Positions 865-10,832 of a stretch of DNA of 24,000 nt are shown here, in pieces. The position numbers were made by a program, and so were the translations under genes. The DNA is from Cytophagaceae bacterium (lineage in GTDB: Bacteria > Bacteroidota > Bacteroidia > Cytophagales > Cytophagaceae). Position 1 is the first letter of the stretch. Each line of letters begins with the position of its first letter. The notes beneath the pieces are model-generated. The model was not told the DNA's origin. It made no database searches and saw nothing but the letters and a program-made list of their open reading frames with translations. The stretch is taken from positions 62,326 through 86,325 of the forward strand of contig DATLOZ010000012.1 in NCBI GenBank assembly GCA_035535995.1, read 5' to 3'.

Positions 865-872
865 TATTTTTG
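865..872 (+). promoter_or_regulatory. Candidate Bacteroidota-type -7 promoter box for the lemA operon
   Basis: TATTTTTG matches the TAnnTTTG -7 consensus exactly, about 30 nt upstream of the lemA ATG (903). The -33 TTTG element is only approximated (TTTC at 843-846). Confidence 0.3.
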
Positions 873-902
873 TTCTACTTAAAACTTAAATTCCAAGAGA
901 TT

Positions 903-1481
903 ATGAAAAGATTATGGTTGAACCTGATGATTCTGGCATCAGCTGTTTCGTTGAGTTCCTGTGGGTATAACAGCATGGTAGAAAAGCAGGAAGCTGTAGA
1001 AAGCCAATGGGCACAGGTTCAGAACGTATACCAGAGAAGAATGGACCTTATTCCTAACCTGGTGGAAACAGTAAAAGGGGTAGCTAATTTTGAAAAAGGT
1101 ACACTGGAAGCAGTAGTACAGGCCAGAGCAGAAGCTACCAAAACTACGATCAATGCAAACGATCTTACTCCTGATAAAGTAGCTCAATTCCAAAAAGCAC
1201 AGGAAGGACTGACCGGAGCGCTTTCTAAATTTATGAGCATCGTAGAAAACTATCCTGATCTGAAAGCAAATCAAAATTTCAGCGAGCTGCAAGCACAGCT
1301 GGAAGGCACTGAAAACAGGATCTCTGTAGAAAGAATGAAATTCAACGAAGCGGTACAGGAATACAACACTTACATCCGCAAATTCCCCAACAACATGACG
1401 GCCGGAATGTTCGGATTTGAAAAGAAAGGTTATTTCGAAGCCTCGGCCGGTGCCGATAAAGCTCCTACCGTTAAATTCTAA
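903..1481 (+). CDS. lemA: LemA family protein (lipoprotein-type signal peptide)
   Basis: ORF 870..1481 (TTG) trimmed to ATG 903, giving MKRLWLNLMILASAVSLSSCGYN (signal peptide with lipobox-like Cys). The body (QWAQVQNVYQRRMDLIPNLVETVKG...FSELQAQLEGTENRISVERMKFNEAVQEYNTYIRKFPNN) is the characteristic LemA pattern. Confidence 0.9.
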   Translation: MKRLWLNLMILASAVSLSSCGYNSMVEKQEAVESQWAQVQNVYQRRMDLIPNLVETVKGVANFEKGTLEAVVQARAEATKTTINANDLTPDKVAQFQKAQEGLTGALSKFMSIVENYPDLKANQNFSELQAQLEGTENRISVERMKFNEAVQEYNTYIRKFPNNMTAGMFGFEKKGYFEASAGADKAPTVKF

Positions 1482-1485
1482 ACGC

Positions 1486-1923
1486 ATGGCACAACATTTA
1501 TTCAACGAGGCACAACAGAAAGCCATCGTAGATTCCATCAAAAAGGCAGAGCTGAATACTTCGGGAGAAGTACAGGTGCATATTGAAAACACTTGCAAAA
1601 AAGAAGTGATGGACAGAGCAACAGAAGTATTTGCATCGCTCAATATGCATAAGACAAAACTTCGCAACGGAGTATTGTTTTATCTCGCTATCAAGGATAA
1701 AAAATTTGCGATCCTAGGAGACGCCGGCATTAATGCTGCAGTACCCGGCGATTTCTGGGAGAAAATCAAAAATTATATGCAGGAAGAATTCCGTAAAGGA
1801 AATTTTACCGAAGGCCTTTGCGAAGGCATCCGTATGGCAGGGGAACAATTAAAAAGCCATTTCCCTTATCAATCGGACGATGTGAACGAGTTGCCAGACG
1901 ATATTTCGTTCTCTAATAATTAA
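1486..1923 (+). CDS. TPM domain-containing protein (soluble, no signal peptide)
   Basis: ORF 1417..1923 trimmed to ATG 1486, 5 nt after the lemA stop. GEVQVHIE...NGVLFYLAIKDKKFAILGDAGIN...FWEKI...F..GNF.EG fits the TPM (TLP18.3/Psb32/MOLO-1) fold pattern and the usual lemA-TPM gene pairing. Confidence 0.8.
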   Translation: MAQHLFNEAQQKAIVDSIKKAELNTSGEVQVHIENTCKKEVMDRATEVFASLNMHKTKLRNGVLFYLAIKDKKFAILGDAGINAAVPGDFWEKIKNYMQEEFRKGNFTEGLCEGIRMAGEQLKSHFPYQSDDVNELPDDISFSNN

Positions 1924-1965
1924 AACAATACTAAAGCAAGGGGACGGATTTTCTTTCCCCTCTTT

Positions 1966-2730
1966 TTGATTTTATCTGATTTGATCGTGTTAAAAAAAAC
2001 AGTTTTACTGGTTTTCCTATTCCTGTACGCAACCGCAGGAATAATGGCTGAGGATAAAAATATTCCCGCTAAGCCTGATTCGCCAAGAATGGTGAATGAC
2101 CTGGCCGGAGTTCTTAATCCAGGTGATGCCGACTATATCGAAGCGAAACTGAGAGCCTACAACGATTCTACCTCTACACAAATTGTAGTAGTCACGGTCA
2201 GTAGCCTGAACGGGTATGATATTGAAAGTTTCTCCTACAAACTCGCCGCAAGCTGGGGCATTGGCCAGAAAGGAAAAAACAATGGGTTACTGATCCTGAT
2301 AGCGCCGAATGAACGCAAGATGCGGATCGAAGTTGGCTACGGATTGGAAGCAGTAGTACCCGATGCGAAAGCCAAATGGATCGAAGACAACATAATGAAA
2401 CCCGCTTTCAAGCAAGGTAACTATGCAGCGGGAATCGACAGTGCAGTTGATCAGATCATCGATAGAAGCGCCGGAGCATACAAACGCGATGGCAAGGAGA
2501 CCGATAAACTTGCTTCTAAAAAAGGCGGCGGCTGGCTGGCTTGGCTGATCATTATTATGATCGTAATTTATGTATTCCTGCGCAGAAATTCCGGTGGCGG
2601 TTTTACTCGCTATTCTTCCGGCGGATATTATGGCGGAGGAGGTTTTAGCGGTGGAAGCTCCGGAGGCAGCAGTTTTGGTGGCTTCGGCGGTGGAAGCTTT
2701 GGCGGAGGTGGTGCCAGCGGCGATTGGTAA
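1966..2730 (+). CDS. TPM domain-containing membrane protein (YgcG-like) with Gly-rich C-terminal tail
   Basis: N-terminal hydrophobic signal. PRMVNDLAGVL...STQIVVVTVSSLNGYDIESFSYKLAASWGIGQKGKNNGLLILIAPNERKMRIEVGYGLE is the TPM core. A TM helix (WLAWLIIIMIVIYVFL) follows, then a Gly/Ser tail ending GGGGASGDW. Start TTG 1966 or GTG 1987 is uncertain. Confidence 0.85.
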   Translation: MILSDLIVLKKTVLLVFLFLYATAGIMAEDKNIPAKPDSPRMVNDLAGVLNPGDADYIEAKLRAYNDSTSTQIVVVTVSSLNGYDIESFSYKLAASWGIGQKGKNNGLLILIAPNERKMRIEVGYGLEAVVPDAKAKWIEDNIMKPAFKQGNYAAGIDSAVDQIIDRSAGAYKRDGKETDKLASKKGGGWLAWLIIIMIVIYVFLRRNSGGGFTRYSSGGYYGGGGFSGGSSGGSSFGGFGGGSFGGGGASGDW

Positions 2731-2763
2731 TCAATATTTGTACAAACTAATAGTTAAAGATAA

Positions 2764-3549
2764 ATGCTGAGATATTTCTTTTTACTGATCTTTTCCGTTT
2801 TCCTGACCAGTGCAGCGCTGGCGGATAAATCTATTGCGATCCCTGCAAGGCCAGAACCTAAAAGGCTTGTAAACGATATGGCAGGCCTGCTGACCGAACC
2901 TAAAAGAACCGAAGCCCTGGAATATAAACTCAATAAGCTGAACGATTCTCTCGGCGTAGAGATTTTTATCGTTACCGTAGAATCCCTGCGCAATATTGAA
3001 GTGGGCAATTATGCACGCGAACTTGCCAGCGTATGGGAAGATGCAAATGATAAAGAGAACGGAATTTTTATTCTCTTCGACTACGAAGACCGTGGTTATG
3101 CAATTATTCCAGGAACTAAGTTTCGCGAAAAATTTCATGATATAATTGTTAAAAAAATTGAGGCGCATTATCTGAAGCCTCACTTTAAAAAGAAACAATT
3201 TTACGAAGGCTTCAACCTTGCTGCCGATGCGATCGCCAATCATATCACTGGAAAACTCACCGATACAGAACTGAAAACTGACGACGAGTATGATCTTTAT
3301 CTTATCACACTTGGGATCTTCTTTTTCTTCCTGATCTTCTTTCCACTTTATCAATATTATCAATTTAAGAAACAACATTTTGGCACGAAGAAAATCGGGT
3401 TCGTTTCCGCTTTTATGCTGATGAACCATTTAAAACCATCACACAGCACATTCGACGATTTCAAAAAAGGAACCGGGTCATTCTCGGTGAGAGGCGCAAG
3501 CGTGACAAGCTTTGGTGGAGGCGCAGGCGGCAGCTGGGGCGGCTGGTAG
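2764..3549 (+). CDS. TPM domain-containing membrane protein, second paralog with Gly-rich tail
   Basis: ATG 2764. Signal peptide (FLTSAALA), then KRLVNDMAGLL...GVEIFIVTVESL...ARELASVW...NGIFILFDYEDRGYAIIPG as the TPM core. A TM helix (ITLGIFFFFLIFFPL) follows and the tail ends GGGAGGSWGGW. Confidence 0.8.
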   Translation: MLRYFFLLIFSVFLTSAALADKSIAIPARPEPKRLVNDMAGLLTEPKRTEALEYKLNKLNDSLGVEIFIVTVESLRNIEVGNYARELASVWEDANDKENGIFILFDYEDRGYAIIPGTKFREKFHDIIVKKIEAHYLKPHFKKKQFYEGFNLAADAIANHITGKLTDTELKTDDEYDLYLITLGIFFFFLIFFPLYQYYQFKKQHFGTKKIGFVSAFMLMNHLKPSHSTFDDFKKGTGSFSVRGASVTSFGGGAGGSWGGW

Positions 3550-3630: not shown

Positions 3631-4365
3631 ATGATCTTAATTAGATTTTTTAAGCAACAGAGTTGGAAGTATGCAGTGCCTTGTATTCTTTTTCTTTTGC
3701 TGTTTCTGGATATTTCGATTCCCTGGACAAATTTTTTTATTGGAAAATATTACGAAGCATGGCATCTTCTTTTTGCTACAGCTTTTCTTATTTGCTATAG
3801 CTTAAAATTTGCAGAGAAATACAACAACCTGGTTATCGACCGGCTGAAGCTATTTTTTTATTTTCTTTTCTTCACCGCTTTCCTGCTTGCCCCTGGCAGA
3901 AGCTTTAGATCGTTAGTTGTAGAATGTTTTCCCTGGTTCGTATTTTATTTGTATTTTTATAGTATACTCGTTCTTCACCAACAAGAAATGCAAGCTCAAG
4001 GAAAAACTACAAAACGCTCTTCCTGGTTAATCATTACAATTGTTCAGTCTGTATTGATCTTATCGATAGCTGTATGGGCGATCACGCAAAAAGTAGAGGC
4101 CGAAAAACAAAAAGAACAGGCCGTTGCAGCGCAAATAGATGCTGAGAAAGCAAAGGATTACGTTCTCCGGGCAAGGCAATCCGAACAAAAATCGAATGAA
4201 TATGCGCTTCAACTACAGCTATTGGCACAGGACTATAGAGCTCTTTTATTAAAAGAAATAGAAATCAGAGATCACTTGAATAATGATCCGAAAAAAAACA
4301 ACCAGCTCGCTAATGAGTTCGAAGAAATAGAAAATAAACGTAGACGAATACGATCTGATAAGTAA
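3631..4365 (+). CDS. Hypothetical polytopic membrane protein with C-terminal coiled coil
   Basis: ATG 3631. Several hydrophobic helices fill the first ~160 aa. A charged heptad-like region follows (KVEAEKQKEQAVAAQIDAEKAKDY...LQLQLLAQDYRALLLKEIEIRD). No family was recognised. Its stop (4363-4365) is 1 nt from the Crp/Fnr start. Confidence 0.6.
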   Translation: MILIRFFKQQSWKYAVPCILFLLLFLDISIPWTNFFIGKYYEAWHLLFATAFLICYSLKFAEKYNNLVIDRLKLFFYFLFFTAFLLAPGRSFRSLVVECFPWFVFYLYFYSILVLHQQEMQAQGKTTKRSSWLIITIVQSVLILSIAVWAITQKVEAEKQKEQAVAAQIDAEKAKDYVLRARQSEQKSNEYALQLQLLAQDYRALLLKEIEIRDHLNNDPKKNNQLANEFEEIENKRRRIRSDK

Positions 4366-4366
4366 T

Positions 4367-5065
4367 ATGAACCCAGAAGCTCACTTCATATTATTACGCA
4401 ACCACGTATTGTTCAACCAGCTTACCTATAAGGAATGCAGGCAGCTCAATATTGTTAATGGCTATCTTGAACCGAAAAAAAATGAATACGTTTACTTTGA
4501 TAAATTCAGTCACGACCGGCTTTATTTCCTAAAAAAAGGATACGTCAAAATTGGTTTCTATGATGAGCAAGGCAACGAAGTAGTGCGCGAGATCCTGAAA
4601 GCCGGCGATATCTTCGGCCAGATCGGATTGGAGCGCTACGACCATGAAGGCGAGTTTGCACAAGCCATTAAAGGCAATGCTTCCATCTGCAGTTTCACTA
4701 TTACCGATTTTGAAGAGATCCTTAAAAAGCGCCCTGACCTTGCCATCTCGTTTACAAAATTAGTAGGCTTAAAATTTAAAAAATTACAGAACCGTCTTTC
4801 CAATATTGTTTTCAAAGACGTACGTCAGCGTCTGGTAGATTTTTTTATAAATTTTGCCGAAAATAATAATCCCGAAAAAACCGACGAGCTCATCATTCAA
4901 AACTATCTCACCCATGCCGATATAGCCAGCCTCATTGGCTCTACACGACAAACGGTGACCACACTCATCAATAAAATGGAAGAAGACCGCATGCTTCTAT
5001 TCGACCGGAAACTGGTGACAATCCCTAGTTTTAAGAAATTGAGAACATATAATATTCCAGCTTAA
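4367..5065 (+). CDS. Crp/Fnr family transcriptional regulator
   Basis: Cyclic-nucleotide-binding-like beta-roll (LYFLKKGYVKIGFYDEQGNEVVREILKAGDIFGQ) plus a C-terminal HTH (LTHADIASLIGSTRQTVTTLINKMEEDRML). Confidence 0.9.
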   Translation: MNPEAHFILLRNHVLFNQLTYKECRQLNIVNGYLEPKKNEYVYFDKFSHDRLYFLKKGYVKIGFYDEQGNEVVREILKAGDIFGQIGLERYDHEGEFAQAIKGNASICSFTITDFEEILKKRPDLAISFTKLVGLKFKKLQNRLSNIVFKDVRQRLVDFFINFAENNNPEKTDELIIQNYLTHADIASLIGSTRQTVTTLINKMEEDRMLLFDRKLVTIPSFKKLRTYNIPA

Positions 5066-5315: not shown

Positions 5316-7253
5316 ATGATTATTTTCTTCTACATGAGAATCGCTGATATACAGAAAGGCCGGAGAACGATTATTTCTGGCATTGCCAGATTGATTTTTG
5401 CTGCGTTGTGGCTGCTATTTTTCTCCAATCATGCATTAGGAGAAAAAATAGTGGAGCTTCACGACCAGCAGGATGATTATGTTCTAAATGGGGCATATAT
5501 CGCAGTGTTCGAAGATCCAGCGCATCAATATAATATTCTTCAAATTAGTGCTCCTGCTTTTAAAGGTTTTGAGGAAAATGGAAAAGCAGGCTTCAACCGG
5601 ATCCCGCAGGCTACTTATTGGCTTCGGTTTCGCGTACGCAATCATACGCATGAGCTGAAACGTTTTTTATTGGAAAGTTATTCTCCCCACTCAAATCGTA
5701 TTCAAGTCTATCTTCCTACAAGCAACGGCCGCTTTGAGGTGCAGCAGGGCGGTGAAGATTTTAAATTTGATCAGCGGATCTACGTTACCAAAAATCTTGT
5801 ATTCGATCTGCCGCTGGATGCTCATCAAGAGGTCACCACTTTCTATGTGCGCATCGACTCGCGCAATTACAGCGCTTTTGATTTTCGCATAAAAACAATC
5901 AATTATTTTCTTTACTACATCACGAACGAATATTATTTCCTCGGTCTCTACTACGGCATTTTATTGATCATGGCGGTGTATAACCTGTTGGTGTATTTTA
6001 CAGTTAAAGAAAATGTTTATCTCTATTACGTATTCTATGTATTTGGTAGCGCCATACTAACCATGACCGACGATGGCCTGGGCTTTCAGTACCTCTGGCC
6101 TTCCCTGCCTTCGCTCAGCAGGCCGATCGGGTACACACTGGCCCCGCTGGCATTGATGTTGATGTTTGTACTATATGCTTCCTCTTTCCTGGATTTGAAA
6201 ATTCGTTTCCCTAAACTTTGGAGAGTATTATTATTTACTACTGCTTTTTATCTTTTTTATTTTACAATTTCGTTAGCCTTTACAGGAAAAGCCTTGCCTA
6301 TTCTCTATACCATTCCATTCCTTATCACCTATGGGATCGCCTGGCTCTGCTATGTGAAAGGCTATGAGGCTTCGCGCTTTTTTATTCTTGGTTATACTTT
6401 TATTCTTATAAGCATTATGATCATTCAACTGCGTGCCGAGCATATGATCGAAGGGAATTTCTTTACTGTCTATAGCCTCAACATAGGACTGATGCTGGAA
6501 GTAGTGATCTTCTCTTTTGCACTTTCTGATAGAATTCGTCTGATCAAAAAAGAAAAAGCGCTGGCGCAACAAGCCATTATTGAAAGCCTGAAAGTGAACC
6601 GCGAACTCCAGGAAAAAGTAAACCGCGAACTAGAAGAAAAGGTAGCTGCACGTACACGTGAGCTGAGCGATAAGAACCTTGAACTCGAAGAAGTCAACGA
6701 TAAACTCCACACGCTCAACAATGCCGTAAACGAAATGAACGCGAAGCTTGACTACGATAATTGGTATTTGAAAAAAGATCTTAAGCAGGATATTCAATCG
6801 AGAATTTTGGAAGCGGAAGTTCCTTATGAAGAATTTATAAAGGTTTTTCCCGATGATCTGTCTTGCCTGAGATACCTGGCCGAACAGAAGTGGCAGCATT
6901 TTTACCGTTGCCGGAAATGTGGCAATTTAAAATACAGCGAATCGCCTGATGGTACTAAACGTAAGTGTACAGTATGCGGGTTTGTAGAATCAGCTACCGC
7001 CTATACTTTATATCATGGCGTTCGTTTCCCGCTCAACAAGGCATTTTATCTCACTTACCTTTTCTACAAAAAAGCAAACAGGCGCAATCTCTCAGACCTC
7101 TCGGAAATGCTACAGATCCGGCGCAATACCTGCGGAAAATTTCGCGCCAAAGTAAATGAAAGCCGTGAGCAATATAATCTCCGCAACAAAAACAAAAAAC
7201 CGGAAACATGGGAAGAACTCATCAGCGTACGGCTTGTGCAAAAGAAATTATGA
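5316..7253 (+). CDS. 7TMR-DISM family receptor with C-terminal IS1595-type zinc-ribbon/HTH domain
   Basis: 645-aa ORF. It has an anchor helix, an extracytoplasmic region (ATYWLRFRVRN...TTFYVRIDSRNYSAFDFRI, 7TMR-DISMED2-like) and seven hydrophobic helices (aa ~195-405). A coiled coil follows, then CLRYLAEQKWQHFYRCRKCGN...KRKCTVCGFVESATAYTLYHGVRFPLNKAFYLTYLFY, resembling the N-terminal Zn-ribbon of IS1595 transposases. Start ATG 5316 or 5334. Confidence 0.85.
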   Translation: MIIFFYMRIADIQKGRRTIISGIARLIFAALWLLFFSNHALGEKIVELHDQQDDYVLNGAYIAVFEDPAHQYNILQISAPAFKGFEENGKAGFNRIPQATYWLRFRVRNHTHELKRFLLESYSPHSNRIQVYLPTSNGRFEVQQGGEDFKFDQRIYVTKNLVFDLPLDAHQEVTTFYVRIDSRNYSAFDFRIKTINYFLYYITNEYYFLGLYYGILLIMAVYNLLVYFTVKENVYLYYVFYVFGSAILTMTDDGLGFQYLWPSLPSLSRPIGYTLAPLALMLMFVLYASSFLDLKIRFPKLWRVLLFTTAFYLFYFTISLAFTGKALPILYTIPFLITYGIAWLCYVKGYEASRFFILGYTFILISIMIIQLRAEHMIEGNFFTVYSLNIGLMLEVVIFSFALSDRIRLIKKEKALAQQAIIESLKVNRELQEKVNRELEEKVAARTRELSDKNLELEEVNDKLHTLNNAVNEMNAKLDYDNWYLKKDLKQDIQSRILEAEVPYEEFIKVFPDDLSCLRYLAEQKWQHFYRCRKCGNLKYSESPDGTKRKCTVCGFVESATAYTLYHGVRFPLNKAFYLTYLFYKKANRRNLSDLSEMLQIRRNTCGKFRAKVNESREQYNLRNKNKKPETWEELISVRLVQKKL

Positions 7254-7259
7254 ATGCTG

Positions 7260-7285
7260 AGCTATGAATATTCAAAGCTTTTTTT
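7260..7285 (+). terminator. Weak hairpin plus T7 run after the 7TMR-DISM gene
   Basis: AGCTATGAAT/ATTCAAAGCT (7260-7279, one A-A mismatch, AT-rich) is immediately followed by TTTTTTT (7279-7285), 7 nt after the stop. Confidence 0.4.
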
Positions 7286-7349
7286 ACTCCTAATTTATAA
7301 TTAATTTCTTTTTGTCAGCGAGATGACAAATATTTCCTGTAACCCCTAT

Positions 7350-7357: not shown

Positions 7358-7383
7358 TTTCGTAAAGATTGTTAAAAGCTATC

Positions 7384-8178
7384 ATGGTCTGTCCAAACTG
7401 CGAAACGGTATACGAAGGAAATTACTGCCCGGAATGTGGACAGAAGACCGTTCATGGGCGGTACACGATCAAAGCGCTAGCTTCCGAATTGATCTTTTCT
7501 GCTTTTCATCTTGAGAAAAAAGGGCTTCCTTATACGGTAAAAGAACTGACGATCCGTCCTGGTATTGCCATTCGCCATGTGCTCGAAGGACAACGTCTAA
7601 GCTTATATCCTCCTTTCAAATACCTTGTGCTTGTTGGAGCATTTGTCGTTGTGTTATCCTTACGTTATGGTTTTTTTCATAGCGATGAACTTACTTCTGC
7701 AGATGCCGATACCTATCAGTTCAGTGTGCTGATGGATCACAAATTATTCTTCGATGGATTTTTCCGCTTTGCAGAAGATTATGCGACCCTACTCAATCTC
7801 GTGGCGATTCCTATATTTTCTTTTTTCTCATTTCTATTCTTCAAAGAATACGGATACAACTTCGCCGAAAATCTTATTCTGAATACCTTTATCACTGCTC
7901 AGCAATTGCTATTCCTTGTATTGCTGGTGCCTTTTATAGAATTTATTCCAGGCATCAAACATATTCTAATTCCTGTATACACTGTAGCAATGGTGGTCTA
8001 CAATATAATTGCTTATGTGCAATTCTATGGTACCAATCTTAGCAATATCTACCGCGCGGTGATCGCAGTGGTTACTTCATACCTGTATCAATTCCCGGCA
8101 AACCTGGGCATGTATTACATCGCACATAATTATGTGATACCATATCTTCATTGGGTTCCTGATATAAATTTACCATGA
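7384..8178 (+). CDS. DUF3667-like membrane protein with N-terminal zinc ribbon
   Basis: ORF 7369..8178 (TTG) trimmed to ATG 7384. MVCPNCETVYEGNYCPECGQK is followed by ...ELTIRPGIAIRHVLEGQRLSLYPPFKYLVLV and multiple TM helices, the pattern I associate with DUF3667. Confidence 0.75.
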   Translation: MVCPNCETVYEGNYCPECGQKTVHGRYTIKALASELIFSAFHLEKKGLPYTVKELTIRPGIAIRHVLEGQRLSLYPPFKYLVLVGAFVVVLSLRYGFFHSDELTSADADTYQFSVLMDHKLFFDGFFRFAEDYATLLNLVAIPIFSFFSFLFFKEYGYNFAENLILNTFITAQQLLFLVLLVPFIEFIPGIKHILIPVYTVAMVVYNIIAYVQFYGTNLSNIYRAVIAVVTSYLYQFPANLGMYYIAHNYVIPYLHWVPDINLP

Positions 8179-8648
8179 GCACTTCATCATTCTTTCTATC
8201 GATAAGTTTTCTCTTCGTTTTCTTTGTCTCTGTAAAAGCACAGGAAACTGAGGCCATACGTATGAAACAATTCAACCTCGAAGACGGCGTAGCCATGAGC
8301 GGTTACGATCCTGTAAGTTATTTTTCGGGTAAGCCTGAAAAAGGATTGAAAACATTTATATTGAAATACAAATCGGTTACTTATCGTTTTGCTTCACAAG
8401 CTAATCTCGATAAATTCAAAACCGATCCAGGTCGCTACGAGCCAGCATACGGCGGCTGGTGCGCATATGCTATGGGGGAGCGAGGAGAGAAAGTAGAAGT
8501 AGACCCTGCAACCTTCAAGATCATCAATGGAAAAATTTACCTATTCTATAACGCTTTCTTTAATAATACGCTTCACGATTGGAACAAAGACGAAGCGAAT
8601 TTAAAAAAGAAAGCTGATCAACACTGGACCTCTTTCACCAAACCATAA
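8175..8648 (+). CDS. YHS domain-containing protein (secreted)
   Basis: The ATG overlaps the upstream stop (ATGA at 8175-8178). Signal peptide present. GYDPVSYFSGKPEKG...YKSVTYRFASQANLDKFKTDPGRYEPAYGGWCAYAM is the YHS-type motif. Confidence 0.8.
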   Translation: MSTSSFFLSISFLFVFFVSVKAQETEAIRMKQFNLEDGVAMSGYDPVSYFSGKPEKGLKTFILKYKSVTYRFASQANLDKFKTDPGRYEPAYGGWCAYAMGERGEKVEVDPATFKIINGKIYLFYNAFFNNTLHDWNKDEANLKKKADQHWTSFTKP

Positions 8649-8652
8649 TGCA

Positions 8653-9069
8653 ATGGTATTACAACCCACAACCAAACAAAACATCTTAAGCTGGATAGCC
8701 CAGCTCACTGCAGCAGCGATTATGCTGCAAACATTAGTATACAAATTTTCCGGCGCCGATGAATCCGTTTATATATTTTCCAAAATAGGCATAGAGCCTT
8801 GGGGCCGTTATCTCACAGGCATAGCGGAATTGATCGCCTCTACGTTACTATTGGTACCTGCATACTGCTGGACTGGTGCCTGTATGGCCAGCGCACTTAT
8901 GACAGGTGCAATTGTTTTGCATCTTACCATTCTTGGTGTAAGCGTAAAAAACGATCACGGCTGGTTATTTATACTTGCGATGATAACATTGTTGTCATCC
9001 TTATTGGTGATCTATTTGCACCGGCGTTCAATTCCTTATATCAATAAATATTTTCCGCCTTATGTTTAA
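8653..9069 (+). CDS. DoxX family membrane protein
   Basis: 138 aa with four hydrophobic helices. LTAAAIMLQTLVYKFSG...GRYLTGIAELIASTLLLVP...TGAIVLHL is DoxX-like. It starts 4 nt after the YHS gene. Confidence 0.75.
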   Translation: MVLQPTTKQNILSWIAQLTAAAIMLQTLVYKFSGADESVYIFSKIGIEPWGRYLTGIAELIASTLLLVPAYCWTGACMASALMTGAIVLHLTILGVSVKNDHGWLFILAMITLLSSLLVIYLHRRSIPYINKYFPPYV

Positions 9070-9130
9070 GAAACATTTTGTGGTTAAAAAATTGTATCTT
9101 CAGTATAGTTCAATTTAAACTATTGCTATT

Positions 9131-9661
9131 ATGAGATCCTTAATTTTTATACTACTTAACGTATTTGCGCTTTCTTCTTTTGCTCAAACCAGAAAGATCA
9201 CGCCGGATAATATTGTATCGTTCAAAATAAAAAACGCCGGTATCAAGGTAGACGGCAGCTTTAGCGGATTACAAGGCACGATTGTTTTTGATCCAAAAAA
9301 CCTGGCGCAAAGCTCTTTCGATGTAAGTATAAAATCAGCCACTGTCAATACAGGTATCGAGGCCCGTGATACACATTTGAAGAAAGAAGAATATTTTAAC
9401 GCGGTCAATTACCCAACAATTAATTTTCGTTCCAAAAAAATTGAAATGACTAGCTCTGGCTTTGTCACCACAGGAACTTTATCAATCAAAGGAAAAACAA
9501 AAGAGATCAAAATTCCTTTCACCTTTTCGGAAAATAACGGCGAAGGAATTTTCAATGGCTCTTTTACTATAAACCGTCTCGACTTCGGCGTGGGTGAATC
9601 CAGCTGGATCTTGTCAGACGAGGCAACTGTTGTATTAGCGATCAAAACATTAAAACCATAA
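9131..9661 (+). CDS. YceI family (polyisoprenoid-binding-like) periplasmic protein
   Basis: Signal peptide, then SFKIKNAGIKVDGSF..LQGTIVFDP......DVSIKSATVNTGIEARDTHLKKEEYFNAVNYPTINFRS...GTLSIKGKTKEIKIPFTF, the YceI signature. Confidence 0.9.
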   Translation: MRSLIFILLNVFALSSFAQTRKITPDNIVSFKIKNAGIKVDGSFSGLQGTIVFDPKNLAQSSFDVSIKSATVNTGIEARDTHLKKEEYFNAVNYPTINFRSKKIEMTSSGFVTTGTLSIKGKTKEIKIPFTFSENNGEGIFNGSFTINRLDFGVGESSWILSDEATVVLAIKTLKP

Positions 9662-9664
9662 TTC

Positions 9665-10180
9665 ATGAATTCAATACTGATTGGGCAAACACGTGCGGTA
9701 TTAAATCAACTCTCCGAAGCGATCAATCTACTCGAACATGCGGAGTACAAAAAACCACTCGACATTCTTTCCGGTTCTACACTAGGACAGCATGTGAGGC
9801 ATGTGATCGAGTTTTACCAATGTATGCTGAAAGGCTACGAAACCGGCGTGATCAACTACGACTTGCGTGTGCGGGATAAAATGATCGAAGAGAGCCGCGA
9901 ATTTGCACTTCAGTGCATCCATAAAATCATGTATGATCTTACCATCGTAGCGCAAAGCAAAACAATTATACTGGAAGTAGCATACGAAGAAACCACCGCA
10001 TTACCTACTACCTTTGAACGTGAGCTCGTGTACAATATTGAACATGCCATTCATCATATGGCGCTTCTCAAGATAGGTATAAAAGAAGTAAATGCTGCGC
10101 TTACACTGCCTGCCGAATTTGGTGTAGCCGCTTCCACTATACGTCATCAACAGCATGTGCACCGTAACCTATCTGCCTAA
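9665..10180 (+). CDS. DinB-like (His-rich helical bundle) family protein
   Basis: 171 aa with spaced His motifs (GQHVRHVIEFY ... NIEHAIHHMALL) typical of the DinB/DinB_2 superfamily. It starts 3 nt after yceI and overlaps the next gene by 26 nt. Confidence 0.5.
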   Translation: MNSILIGQTRAVLNQLSEAINLLEHAEYKKPLDILSGSTLGQHVRHVIEFYQCMLKGYETGVINYDLRVRDKMIEESREFALQCIHKIMYDLTIVAQSKTIILEVAYEETTALPTTFERELVYNIEHAIHHMALLKIGIKEVNAALTLPAEFGVAASTIRHQQHVHRNLSA

Positions 10181-10832
10181 GTCGGGCGGCGATTATATCC
10201 TCACTTCCAACCGCGACGAAAGCACCGCAAGACCCGCCGCTTTAGCGCCTGCTACATATCTTGTTCATGGGAAAAATATTACCTTCCCCAAAGATCCACT
10301 TGCCGGAGGAAGCTGGATCGCTTATGCAGAAGGCCGCGCCGCTTGTTTGCTCAATGGCGCCTTTCACAAACATATTCCTACGCCACCTTATAAAAAAAGT
10401 CGCGGGTTAGTAGTGCTTGATTATTTTGCCTTTGAAAATGTCCGGCTATTCTCTTCGCAATACGACTTTACCGGTATTGAACCATTTACTTTATTATTGT
10501 TGGAAAATGCATCACTCTCCGAATTGCGCTGGGATGGAGAACTACTGCATGTACGTAACTGCAATCCGAACGTACCGCAGATCTGGTCGTCCGTAACGTT
10601 GTACCCGGATGAAATTATTTCTAAAAGAAAAAAATGGTTTGCCGAATGGCTTACAAAAAATTATTCTTACCAGCAAAACGCGATCGTCCTTTTCCATCAC
10701 ACCGCTGGAGAAGGCAATGAAACAAATGATATACTAATGAAGCGACATGGACTGCAGACAGTGAGCATTACTTCTATTGAAAAGACAGGCAAGCAGTTGG
10801 CGATGGTATATGAAGACTTGTCTAAACCATGA
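10155..10832 (+). CDS. NRDE family protein (TANGO2-like, N-terminal Cys)
   Basis: MCTVTYLPKSGGDYILTSNRDE... carries the Met-Cys start and the NRDE motif that name the family. Confidence 0.85.
   Translation: MCTVTYLPKSGGDYILTSNRDESTARPAALAPATYLVHGKNITFPKDPLAGGSWIAYAEGRAACLLNGAFHKHIPTPPYKKSRGLVVLDYFAFENVRLFSSQYDFTGIEPFTLLLLENASLSELRWDGELLHVRNCNPNVPQIWSSVTLYPDEIISKRKKWFAEWLTKNYSYQQNAIVLFHHTAGEGNETNDILMKRHGLQTVSITSIEKTGKQLAMVYEDLSKP

Follow-up and report, generated by a model that had tools for sequence, protein, structure and literature searches.

In this study we analysed a stretch of 24,000 nucleotides from a Cytophagaceae bacterium (NCBI GenBank assembly GCA_035535995.1, contig DATLOZ010000012.1, positions 62,326 to 86,325 of the forward strand), which is called the window throughout, and within it a single gene for a 645-residue receptor of the 7TMR-DISM type (Table 1). 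This gene probably encodes a phosphorelay-free, membrane-embedded one-component transcription regulator, a reading to which we assign a probability of about 0.7. One polypeptide combines a periplasmic sensor, a membrane span and a cytoplasmic domain that is predicted to be of the DNA-binding type, and it does so without phosphorelay domains.

The following mechanism is proposed. A periplasmic ligand, probably a glycan or another small extracytoplasmic cue, would bind to the 7TMR-DISMED2 (DISMED2) domain. The conformational change would travel via the bundle of seven transmembrane helices (7TM) and a dimeric signalling helix (S-helix) and would re-orient two modules, each made of a zinc ribbon and a helix-turn-helix (HTH) part. 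The paired modules would attach to, or let go of, specific operator DNA without the protein leaving the membrane, and nearby genes would be switched on or off with no need for ATP or for a response regulator as partner. The DNA-binding module itself would have been captured from a resident insertion sequence (IS) of the IS1595 family, most likely once, and would then have been shuffled between sensor types. A wider claim is that the family forms an undescribed, Cytophagales-wide class of ATP-independent transducers, in which a once-captured IS1595 module is wired by S-helices to at least two sensor types and directly regulates polysaccharide utilization loci (PULs) and secreted glycanases from the membrane. 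The sensor types would be 7TMR-DISM and beta-propellers of the kind known from hybrid two-component systems (HTCS). For this wider claim we see the chances as about even.

Architecture of the receptor

An original prediction, made from the nucleotide sequence of the window, had described an open reading frame (ORF) of 645 codons with an anchor helix, an extracytoplasmic region of about 150 residues, seven hydrophobic helices and a coiled coil. All of these elements were recovered by the ORF list, the Pfam matches, the hydropathy scan and the structure model. Both receptor profiles named in that prediction were matched far above their cut-offs: 7TMR-DISMED2 (PF07696) with E=1.9e-25 and 89.8 bits (cut-off 22), and 7TMR-DISM_7TM (PF07695) with E=5.5e-43 and 147.7 bits (cut-off 29) over the full model (positions 1-205). 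By these two defining domains the protein is a bona fide 7TMR-DISM receptor, and its output module is undescribed.

The periplasmic stretch measures about 166 residues in the hydropathy scan, of which the beta-sandwich takes up about 150. When the sensor domain was used for a fold search, the periplasmic domain of RetS ranked first among solved structures (2xbz/3jyb, E about 3.5e-5 to 8e-5, TM-score 0.66), followed by sugar-binding beta-sandwich domains and carbohydrate-binding modules (CBMs). Four K/R residues precede the anchor and indicate an N-in orientation. The transmembrane bundle is followed by a basic cytoplasmic tail of 235 residues, beginning with SDRIRLIKKEK, according to hydropathy and the AlphaFold model. 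Since the hydropathy scan gives a charged N-terminus, an anchor helix, a periplasmic stretch, the transmembrane bundle and the tail in this order, the C-terminus is placed in the cytoplasm. The full-length AlphaFold model, which was built on 62 full-length relatives (pLDDT 86.5), likewise consists of a beta-sandwich, seven transmembrane helices and a compact C-terminal domain.

None of the usual output domains was detected in the receptor. Searches with Pfam and NCBIfam gave no kinase, GGDEF/EAL, cyclase or phosphatase output at E<=1, and the HisKA, HATPase and receiver domains of a phosphorelay were equally missing from the matches.

Homology of the C-terminal module to IS1595 transposases

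In place of these outputs the receptor ends in a module with a CxxC...CxxC ribbon, whose four cysteines are invariant in the 62 full-length relatives. The module model (pLDDT 94.2) comprises two helices, a Cys4 ribbon of three strands and an HTH-like bundle of three further helices (aa 573-586, 592-599 and 603-623), in agreement with the zinc ribbon and HTH-like stretch that had been anticipated for this part of the protein. The net charge is +13 for the module of the window and +10 for its HTH-like segment, with a mean of +6.9 for the module family.

The tail had been assigned to the zinc-ribbon family of IS1595 transposases, represented by PF12760. The protein of the window itself reached 17.1 bits as a whole and 20.9-21.1 bits with its tail, at a gathering score of 25.4, and gave no match at E<=1 to NF033547, the IS1595 model of NCBIfam. 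Nevertheless, the assignment holds for the family, as 56 of 59 diverse family modules matched PF12760 (best E=7e-11) and several relatives exceeded the gathering score (26-30 bits). NF033547 is a model of 215 positions which begins after the ribbon; it was matched by 42 of the 59 modules and solely at its positions 1-57, corresponding to module residues 70 to 125 approximately. Thus, the two profiles match adjacent segments in the order in which they occur in a transposase, and the catalytic part is missing.

Direct comparisons led to the same result. In a BLASTP comparison with the IS1595 transposase of Chondrinema litorale, the tail showed 36% identity over 100 residues without gaps (E=7e-23; window aa 517-616 with transposase aa 22-121). 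A tblastn search with a module sequence against plasmids retrieved annotated IS1595 transposases of Chondrinema litorale (Cytophagales) and Klebsiella as well as ISPma1 and ISRhtr1, with 85-93% coverage, 31-36% identity and E values of 1e-15 to 4e-23. These transposases carry PF12760 followed by DDE_Tnp_IS1595 (PF12762) at aa 131-280 approximately. When the family profile was aligned to transposases by hhalign, probabilities of 99.9% and 99.4% were obtained, for transposase residues 7-127 and 11-135, respectively. The alignment ends where the DDE domain of the transposase starts, and the HTH-like segment of the module is aligned to transposase residues 78-127 approximately. In the opposite direction, three transposases gave a sole tblastn match in the whole window, at nt 6831-7178. 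As judged by the BLASTP and tblastn comparisons, the P-L-x-K-x-F segment and the HTH-like stretch, in which the original prediction had recognised a transposase pattern, represent true homology and not a chance pattern; the hhalign alignments and the NF033547 matches extend it well past the ribbon. On the basis of these alignments we regard it as secure that the module is homologous to the complete N-terminal region of IS1595-family transposases which precedes the DDE domain. PDB sequence searches with the module and with the family profile returned nothing significant.

The linker and the mode of activation

In the AlphaFold model the last transmembrane helix and the linker form a single helix (aa 382-499) which runs into the C-terminal module. 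S-helices are described as parallel coiled-coil switches of about 40 residues between sensor and output, with a central 'ERT' signature, and they sometimes precede HTH domains (PMC1592074). The linker is conserved to an unusual degree. Its core reads EKVAARTREL, with A445-R446-T447 encoded at nt 6648-6656. The family consensus is LEEKVxERTxEL, in which R446 is near-invariant and T447 invariant, and the protein of the window has A-R-T at this site. The linker consensus matches the S-helix signature, and by this consensus and the continuous helix the linker is a putative S-helix.

A second conserved linker motif, KLDYDNWYLKK (aa 476-486, window 6741-6773; family form KLDxDNWxLKK), lies between the S-helix and the module. 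Its residues L478, D479, D481, N482 and L485 are invariant or nearly so in the 62 relatives, and the motif falls within the sole part of the model with low confidence (pLDDT <50 at aa 471-491). A hinge, a dimer contact and a processing site are all conceivable roles for it. The last of these would suit activation by release, in which ligand-triggered proteolysis within the linker would free the ribbon-HTH module to diffuse to its targets, similar to regulated intramembrane proteolysis. However, no protease gene recurs among the neighbours of 80 loci, and the S-helix signature of the linker is typical of conformational, dimer-based signalling. Moreover, descriptions of the functional analogues SusR and BguR place them within the membrane, and short proteins which appeared to consist of the module only are truncations at contig edges. 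We therefore consider release unlikely and favour a regulator that acts from the membrane.

Conservation of the fusion and size of the family

The presence of a transposase-like segment at the end of a receptor gene raises the question whether a recent IS1595 insertion, or an artefact of assembly or annotation, happens to share its reading frame with a truncated gene for a 7TMR-DISM histidine kinase. Names such as 'transposase' (NCBI) and 'sensor histidine kinase LadS' (JGI) for some family members, together with the sub-threshold PF12760 score of the window's protein, could be taken in this sense, but the conservation data refute it.

A search with the full-length protein gave 739 matches. 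Among the top 120 of these, which belong mostly to metagenome-assembled genomes of Cytophagaceae, all proteins are about 600-670 residues long, and neither the CxxC...CxxC ribbon nor the LRRNTCW.F.KK helix is missing from any of them. With the tail alone, a word-indexed search found one match, and the search was carried out exhaustively for the family count, which resulted in 1,698 clusters at 50% identity, 588 of them at E<=1e-10. When the genomes of species representatives were scanned with a narrowed family alignment, at least 552 loci were located, with at least five copies in one chromosome of 4.5 Mb. Cultured carriers belong to Algoriphagus, Echinicola, Cyclobacterium, Imperialibacter, Pseudochryseolinea and Penaeicola. 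The same single-ORF fusion recurs across more than 1,600 clusters and down to 35-40% identity, and a protein identical to that of the window is present on an independent public contig.

The original prediction had also stated that neither a DDE domain nor terminal inverted repeats are present, and this was borne out. No DDE segment was found in the whole window (tblastn with the DDE domains of three transposases gave E>=0.9), and the repeat search revealed no convincing inverted repeats around the gene. Because it is devoid of a DDE domain and of IS ends, the protein is not an IS1595 transposase. Orthologs with 64-74% identity share the chromosomal surroundings of the gene (LemA, three TPM genes ... 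polA), and no transposase lies close by. In a comparison with four orthologs, non-synonymous divergence within the protein is lowest for the module (pN 0.10-0.17, amino acid identity 74-85%), whereas the periplasmic domain reaches a pN of 0.26-0.32 (amino acid identity 52-60%). Divergence is given as pN and pS since synonymous sites are saturated (pS 0.75-1.0 for the four orthologs), for which reason dN/dS is not computable. As measured by these substitution values, the module is under the strongest purifying selection within the protein. A single ORF conserved in hundreds of genomes at syntenic positions, as had been expected of a genuine fusion, and the selection on the module show that we are not dealing with a recent IS insertion. 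The fusion constitutes a gene family of Cytophagales that is old, under selection and present in several copies per genome, and the copy of the window is an ordinary member of it, so the value of the finding lies in the family itself.

The module is also portable. Three proteins of about 1,000 residues were found to consist of Reg_prop repeats, a Y_Y_Y domain, one transmembrane helix, a coiled coil and the same module, and Reg_prop/Y_Y_Y is the sensor type of the HTCS of Bacteroidota. Free-standing module proteins were considered as a further form and rejected; the candidate P0196 begins at a contig edge.

Two side observations concern the family. From the same sample as the window (SRR8549365), L003 carries a paralog with 56% identity (P0019), consistent with several paralogs per organism; it is oriented divergently to unknown genes, a large TPR protein gene and a TonB-dependent receptor gene. 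Public names of family members are inconsistent and partly wrong: 'transposase' is used for several by NCBI and 'sensor histidine kinase LadS' for some by JGI, and 'ribosomal protein L37E' and 'coiled-coil protein SlyX' occur as well (misnamed entries are P0001, P0021, P0033 and P0062 at NCBI, and P0003, P0024, P0007 and P0017 at JGI). The domain architecture is already visible in precomputed Pfam matches.

Genomic context of relatives and search for operators

The neighbours of 80 genome loci were clustered and the recurrent clusters annotated. Directly downstream of the regulator and on the same strand, 24 of the 80 loci have a gene for a SusC-like TonB-dependent receptor, usually after a gap of 210-380 bp. 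SusD comes next in 22 loci, and in a further subset a Big/Laminin_G lipoprotein follows. Other members of the family adjoin genes for proteins secreted by the type IX secretion system, with GH16+CBM6+ricin, GH18 or GH81 domains. Independently of these, the Reg_prop variant P0225 (Reg_prop, Y_Y_Y, transmembrane helix, coiled coil and module) closes a SusC-SusD-FG-GAP/ASPIC-GH43 locus (L089, 1-11069). DISMED domains are predicted to bind carbohydrate (PMC6107284). Given this prediction, the SusC/SusD and glycanase synteny and the P0225 locus, the proteins are probably glycan-responsive regulators of adjacent loci. The PUL synteny in the relatives supports the presumed role of the module in DNA binding and transcription control. 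As a side observation, a YceI gene lies near P0225 in L089, as it does in the window near the receptor gene.

Operators were searched for in the 24 regulator-susC intergenic regions. Two conserved blocks, TTAGTATCCATGCGGGACAAAA and TTTTTACTGAGAT..AA..GGGAAA, were found in the regions of L030, L033, L035, L043, L052, L064 and L074. They occupy alignment columns 124-146 and 183-208 and are located about 90-170 nt upstream of a TAnnTTTG-like -7 box (CTAGATTTC). By their position and conservation these blocks are candidate operators.

An alternative role of the module is that it does not regulate genes but retains the recognition of IS1595 ends, for example repressing or tethering resident elements in dependence on the sensed signal, or that it binds RNA or another protein. 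The closest non-receptor relatives are indeed IS1595 elements of Cytophagales which look active and have terminal inverted repeats of 25 nt and target duplications of 8 bp; zinc ribbons can contact protein or RNA, and the module shows weak matches to ribosomal and TFIIB ribbons. On the other hand, neither the window nor the regulator-susC intergenic regions are enriched in sequences resembling the terminal inverted repeats of the closest IS, and no IS1595 copy is present in the window. Since the identity to transposases is 31-36%, compared with 74-85% among orthologs, the specificity of the module had ample time to change. The conserved linkage to SusC/SusD and glycanase genes speaks for operon control of the ordinary kind. 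Taken together, we regard this alternative as very improbable, and transcription control of neighbouring genes as the better reading.

Several observations weigh against transcription control. The protein of the window stays under the curated thresholds of both profile libraries. In PDB sequence and fold searches no solved structure resembles the whole module, and to our knowledge there is no IS1595 transposase N-terminus with demonstrated DNA binding. All 24 PUL-linked regulators belong to a single broad clade of orthologs (43-98% identity), so that the PUL synteny amounts to one association conserved over deep divergence and not to many independent events. No robust operator motif is shared by the 24 intergenic regions, where the enriched k-mers are A/T runs only, and the conserved blocks were seen only among close relatives (the Algoriphagus-type group). 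Finally, the copy of the window has no PUL neighbour, and the neighbours differ among orthologs.

Comparison with known systems

The closest functional parallel is BguR of Formosa agariphila, which consists of a Reg_prop/Y_Y_Y sensor, one transmembrane helix, a helical linker and a GerE HTH domain. Deletion of bguR abolishes growth on laminarin, and the wild type induces the BguR-associated cluster, a laminarin PUL, more than 80-fold. For the authors of that study SusR is the single comparable case known; control without a partner is shown genetically for BguR and proposed for SusR, and the paper mentions neither 7TM, zinc nor transposase (bioRxiv 10.64898/2026.01.10.698779). The family described here shares with BguR and SusR the order of periplasmic sensor, membrane span, helical linker and (predicted) C-terminal DNA-binding domain, the absence of kinase and receiver domains, and the location next to SusC/SusD loci in Bacteroidota. 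The Reg_prop/Y_Y_Y sensor of BguR recurs in the relatives of about 1,000 residues. Unlike BguR with its single transmembrane helix and GerE/LuxR HTH, the receptor of the window has a DISMED2 domain, a 7TM bundle and a zinc ribbon plus HTH of transposase origin; GerE (PF00196) matched one of 59 modules with E=0.008. The function of BguR was established by deletion and transcriptomics, whereas that of our family is predicted. By its domain composition the protein is an analogue of BguR and SusR and not a homolog in the DNA-binding part.

With IS1595 transposases (Chondrinema litorale WP_284687978, ISPma1, ISRhtr1) the family has about 125 homologous residues in common, which are N-terminal to the catalytic domain in the transposases and C-terminal to the receptor here. 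In contrast to the transposases, it lacks the DDE_Tnp_IS1595 domain, terminal inverted repeats, target duplications and mobility.

RetS, LadS, NicD and RgsP resemble the receptor in the DISMED2 domain and the 7TMR-DISM_7TM bundle, and their S-helix before the output has a putative counterpart in its linker. They differ in the output itself, which is a histidine kinase, a GGDEF/EAL or a PAS module there and a predicted DNA-binding module here. The original description of 7TMR-DISM proteins is reportedly that of Anantharaman and Aravind from 2003. As outputs of 7TMR-DISM receptors, histidine kinase, GGDEF/EAL and PAS modules are listed in the literature (PMC6107284). In addition, 7TMR-DISM is catalogued among the sensor domains found with the DNA-binding domain of the ChiS family. 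Vibrio ChiS and its relatives are similar to our family in that a membrane sensor carries a C-terminal DNA-binding domain, but they belong to Proteobacteria and have an unrelated, cryptic HTH without a zinc ribbon, and ChiS itself possesses kinase and receiver domains.

The HTCS of Bacteroidota, too, regulate PULs and are anchored in the membrane, from where they are thought to act; they combine Reg_prop/Y_Y_Y sensors with a C-terminal HTH. Their HisKA, HATPase, receiver and AraC-type HTH domains set them apart from our family, which has no phosphorelay parts. In ToxR, CadC and TcpP one protein senses outside the cell and binds DNA inside. These proteins have an N-terminal winged HTH, a single transmembrane helix and a C-terminal periplasmic sensor, which is the opposite orientation with unrelated domains. 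Our literature search found no paper linking 7TMR-DISM to IS1595/PF12760 or to PULs. The novelty that had been claimed for a 7TM sensor with DNA-binding output was thus upheld for the IS1595-type output, which is undescribed, but has to be restricted with respect to DNA-binding outputs in general, for which the ChiS domain, SusR and BguR are precedents.

If DNA binding holds true, the family would be the third type of phosphorelay-free membrane regulator for glycan use in Bacteroidota, after SusR and BguR, and the prevalent type in Cytophagales, a group with few studies of PUL regulation. It would also be a clear bacterial case of the recruitment of a transposase DNA-binding region as a transcription-factor family. 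The domestication of transposases into transcription factors is well known in eukaryotes and rarely documented in bacteria. The modules could offer a first functional handle on DNA recognition by the IS1595 N-terminus. Misleading annotation leads to a miscount of both mobile elements and signalling proteins in the carrier genomes. As carriers such as Algoriphagus, Echinicola, Cyclobacterium and Imperialibacter are in culture, the hypothesis is open to direct testing.

Feature coordinates and neighbouring genes

The positions of all features are compiled in Table 1. The longest ORF starts with MIIFFYM... and an alternative start, Met7, lies at 5334. In public gene calls the identical protein P0002 begins at Met7 and has 639 residues; its contig, L001, is collinear with the window. 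Between the stop codon and the next gene there are 115 nt, which hold a palindrome followed by a T-run of seven. A hairpin with T-run after the stop had been predicted, and both elements are present, but the palindrome is weak (dG -8.2 kcal/mol, z=-1.9) and was not reported by the terminator scan.

Table 1. Features of the receptor gene and its 3' end in the window
Feature	Residues	Position (nt)	Strand	Basis
Whole gene, 7TMR-DISM receptor with C-terminal module derived from IS1595 transposase	645 aa	5316..7253	+	ORF list
N-terminal signal anchor	18-41	5367..5438	+	hydropathy scan; helix 17-35 in AlphaFold model
Periplasmic 7TMR-DISMED2 sensor domain, beta-sandwich	60-192	5493..5891	+	Pfam PF07696
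7TMR-DISM seven-helix transmembrane bundle	205-406	5928..6533	+	Pfam PF07695, AlphaFold model, hydropathy
Cytoplasmic signalling-helix / coiled-coil linker	407-499 (about 95 residues)	6534..6812	+	AlphaFold, family consensus
C-terminal module	500-645 (146 aa)	6813..7250	+	BLASTP, hhalign, tblastn, AlphaFold, charge
Zinc ribbon, ligands C532, C535, C551, C554	512-555	6849..6980	+	PF12760, conservation, model
Three-helix HTH-like bundle, putative basic recognition helix 'RRNTCGKFRAKV'	573-623	7032..7184	+	model, alignments
Weak AT-rich palindrome (AGCTATGAATATTCAAAGCT) then T7, possible terminator		7260..7286 (palindrome 7260-7279)	+	fold, palindrome search

Upstream of the receptor gene, the window contains a Crp/Fnr gene, as had been noted and as confirmed by a Pfam match. 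It is found in one of five orthologous loci, and Crp/Fnr was rejected as a conserved partner (present in L006, absent from L002, L005, L007, L008 and the P0009 locus). A protein of 244 residues from an unknown family, with membrane and coiled-coil parts, ends 1 nt before the Crp/Fnr start (4365/4367). This pair (window 3631-5065) is kept together in L006 and absent from the other orthologous loci. Further upstream, at window positions 870-3549, the + strand carries LemA and then three TPM-domain genes in a row, and this cluster is conserved upstream of the receptor in L002, L005 and L006.

Downstream, a packed run of genes on the same strand (window 7369-10832) comprises DUF3667, YHS, DoxX-like, YceI, an ORF of 171 residues and TANGO2. 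The assignment to DUF3667, made in the original prediction, is borderline (26.8 bits at a threshold of 27), and the protein carries an N-terminal double CxxC. Some of these genes (DUF3667, DoxX, YceI) are found again behind orthologs of the receptor gene. By synteny, the recurrent downstream genes DUF3667, YHS, DoxX and YceI are possible targets of the regulator.

A final observation concerns the nearest non-receptor relative of the module, which is a multi-copy IS1595 element of about 1 kb on plasmids of Chondrinema litorale (L092, positions 1081-2093 approximately, and L093). A derivation of operators from IS ends was considered and rejected, the terminal inverted repeat of this closest IS showing no enrichment in the window or in the regulator-susC intergenic regions. 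The element is bounded by 25-nt terminal inverted repeats, ATAGGGTTACCCAT(T/C)TAA(A/G)TC(T/G)CAG, is flanked by 8-bp target duplications and resides on at least five plasmids of one strain.

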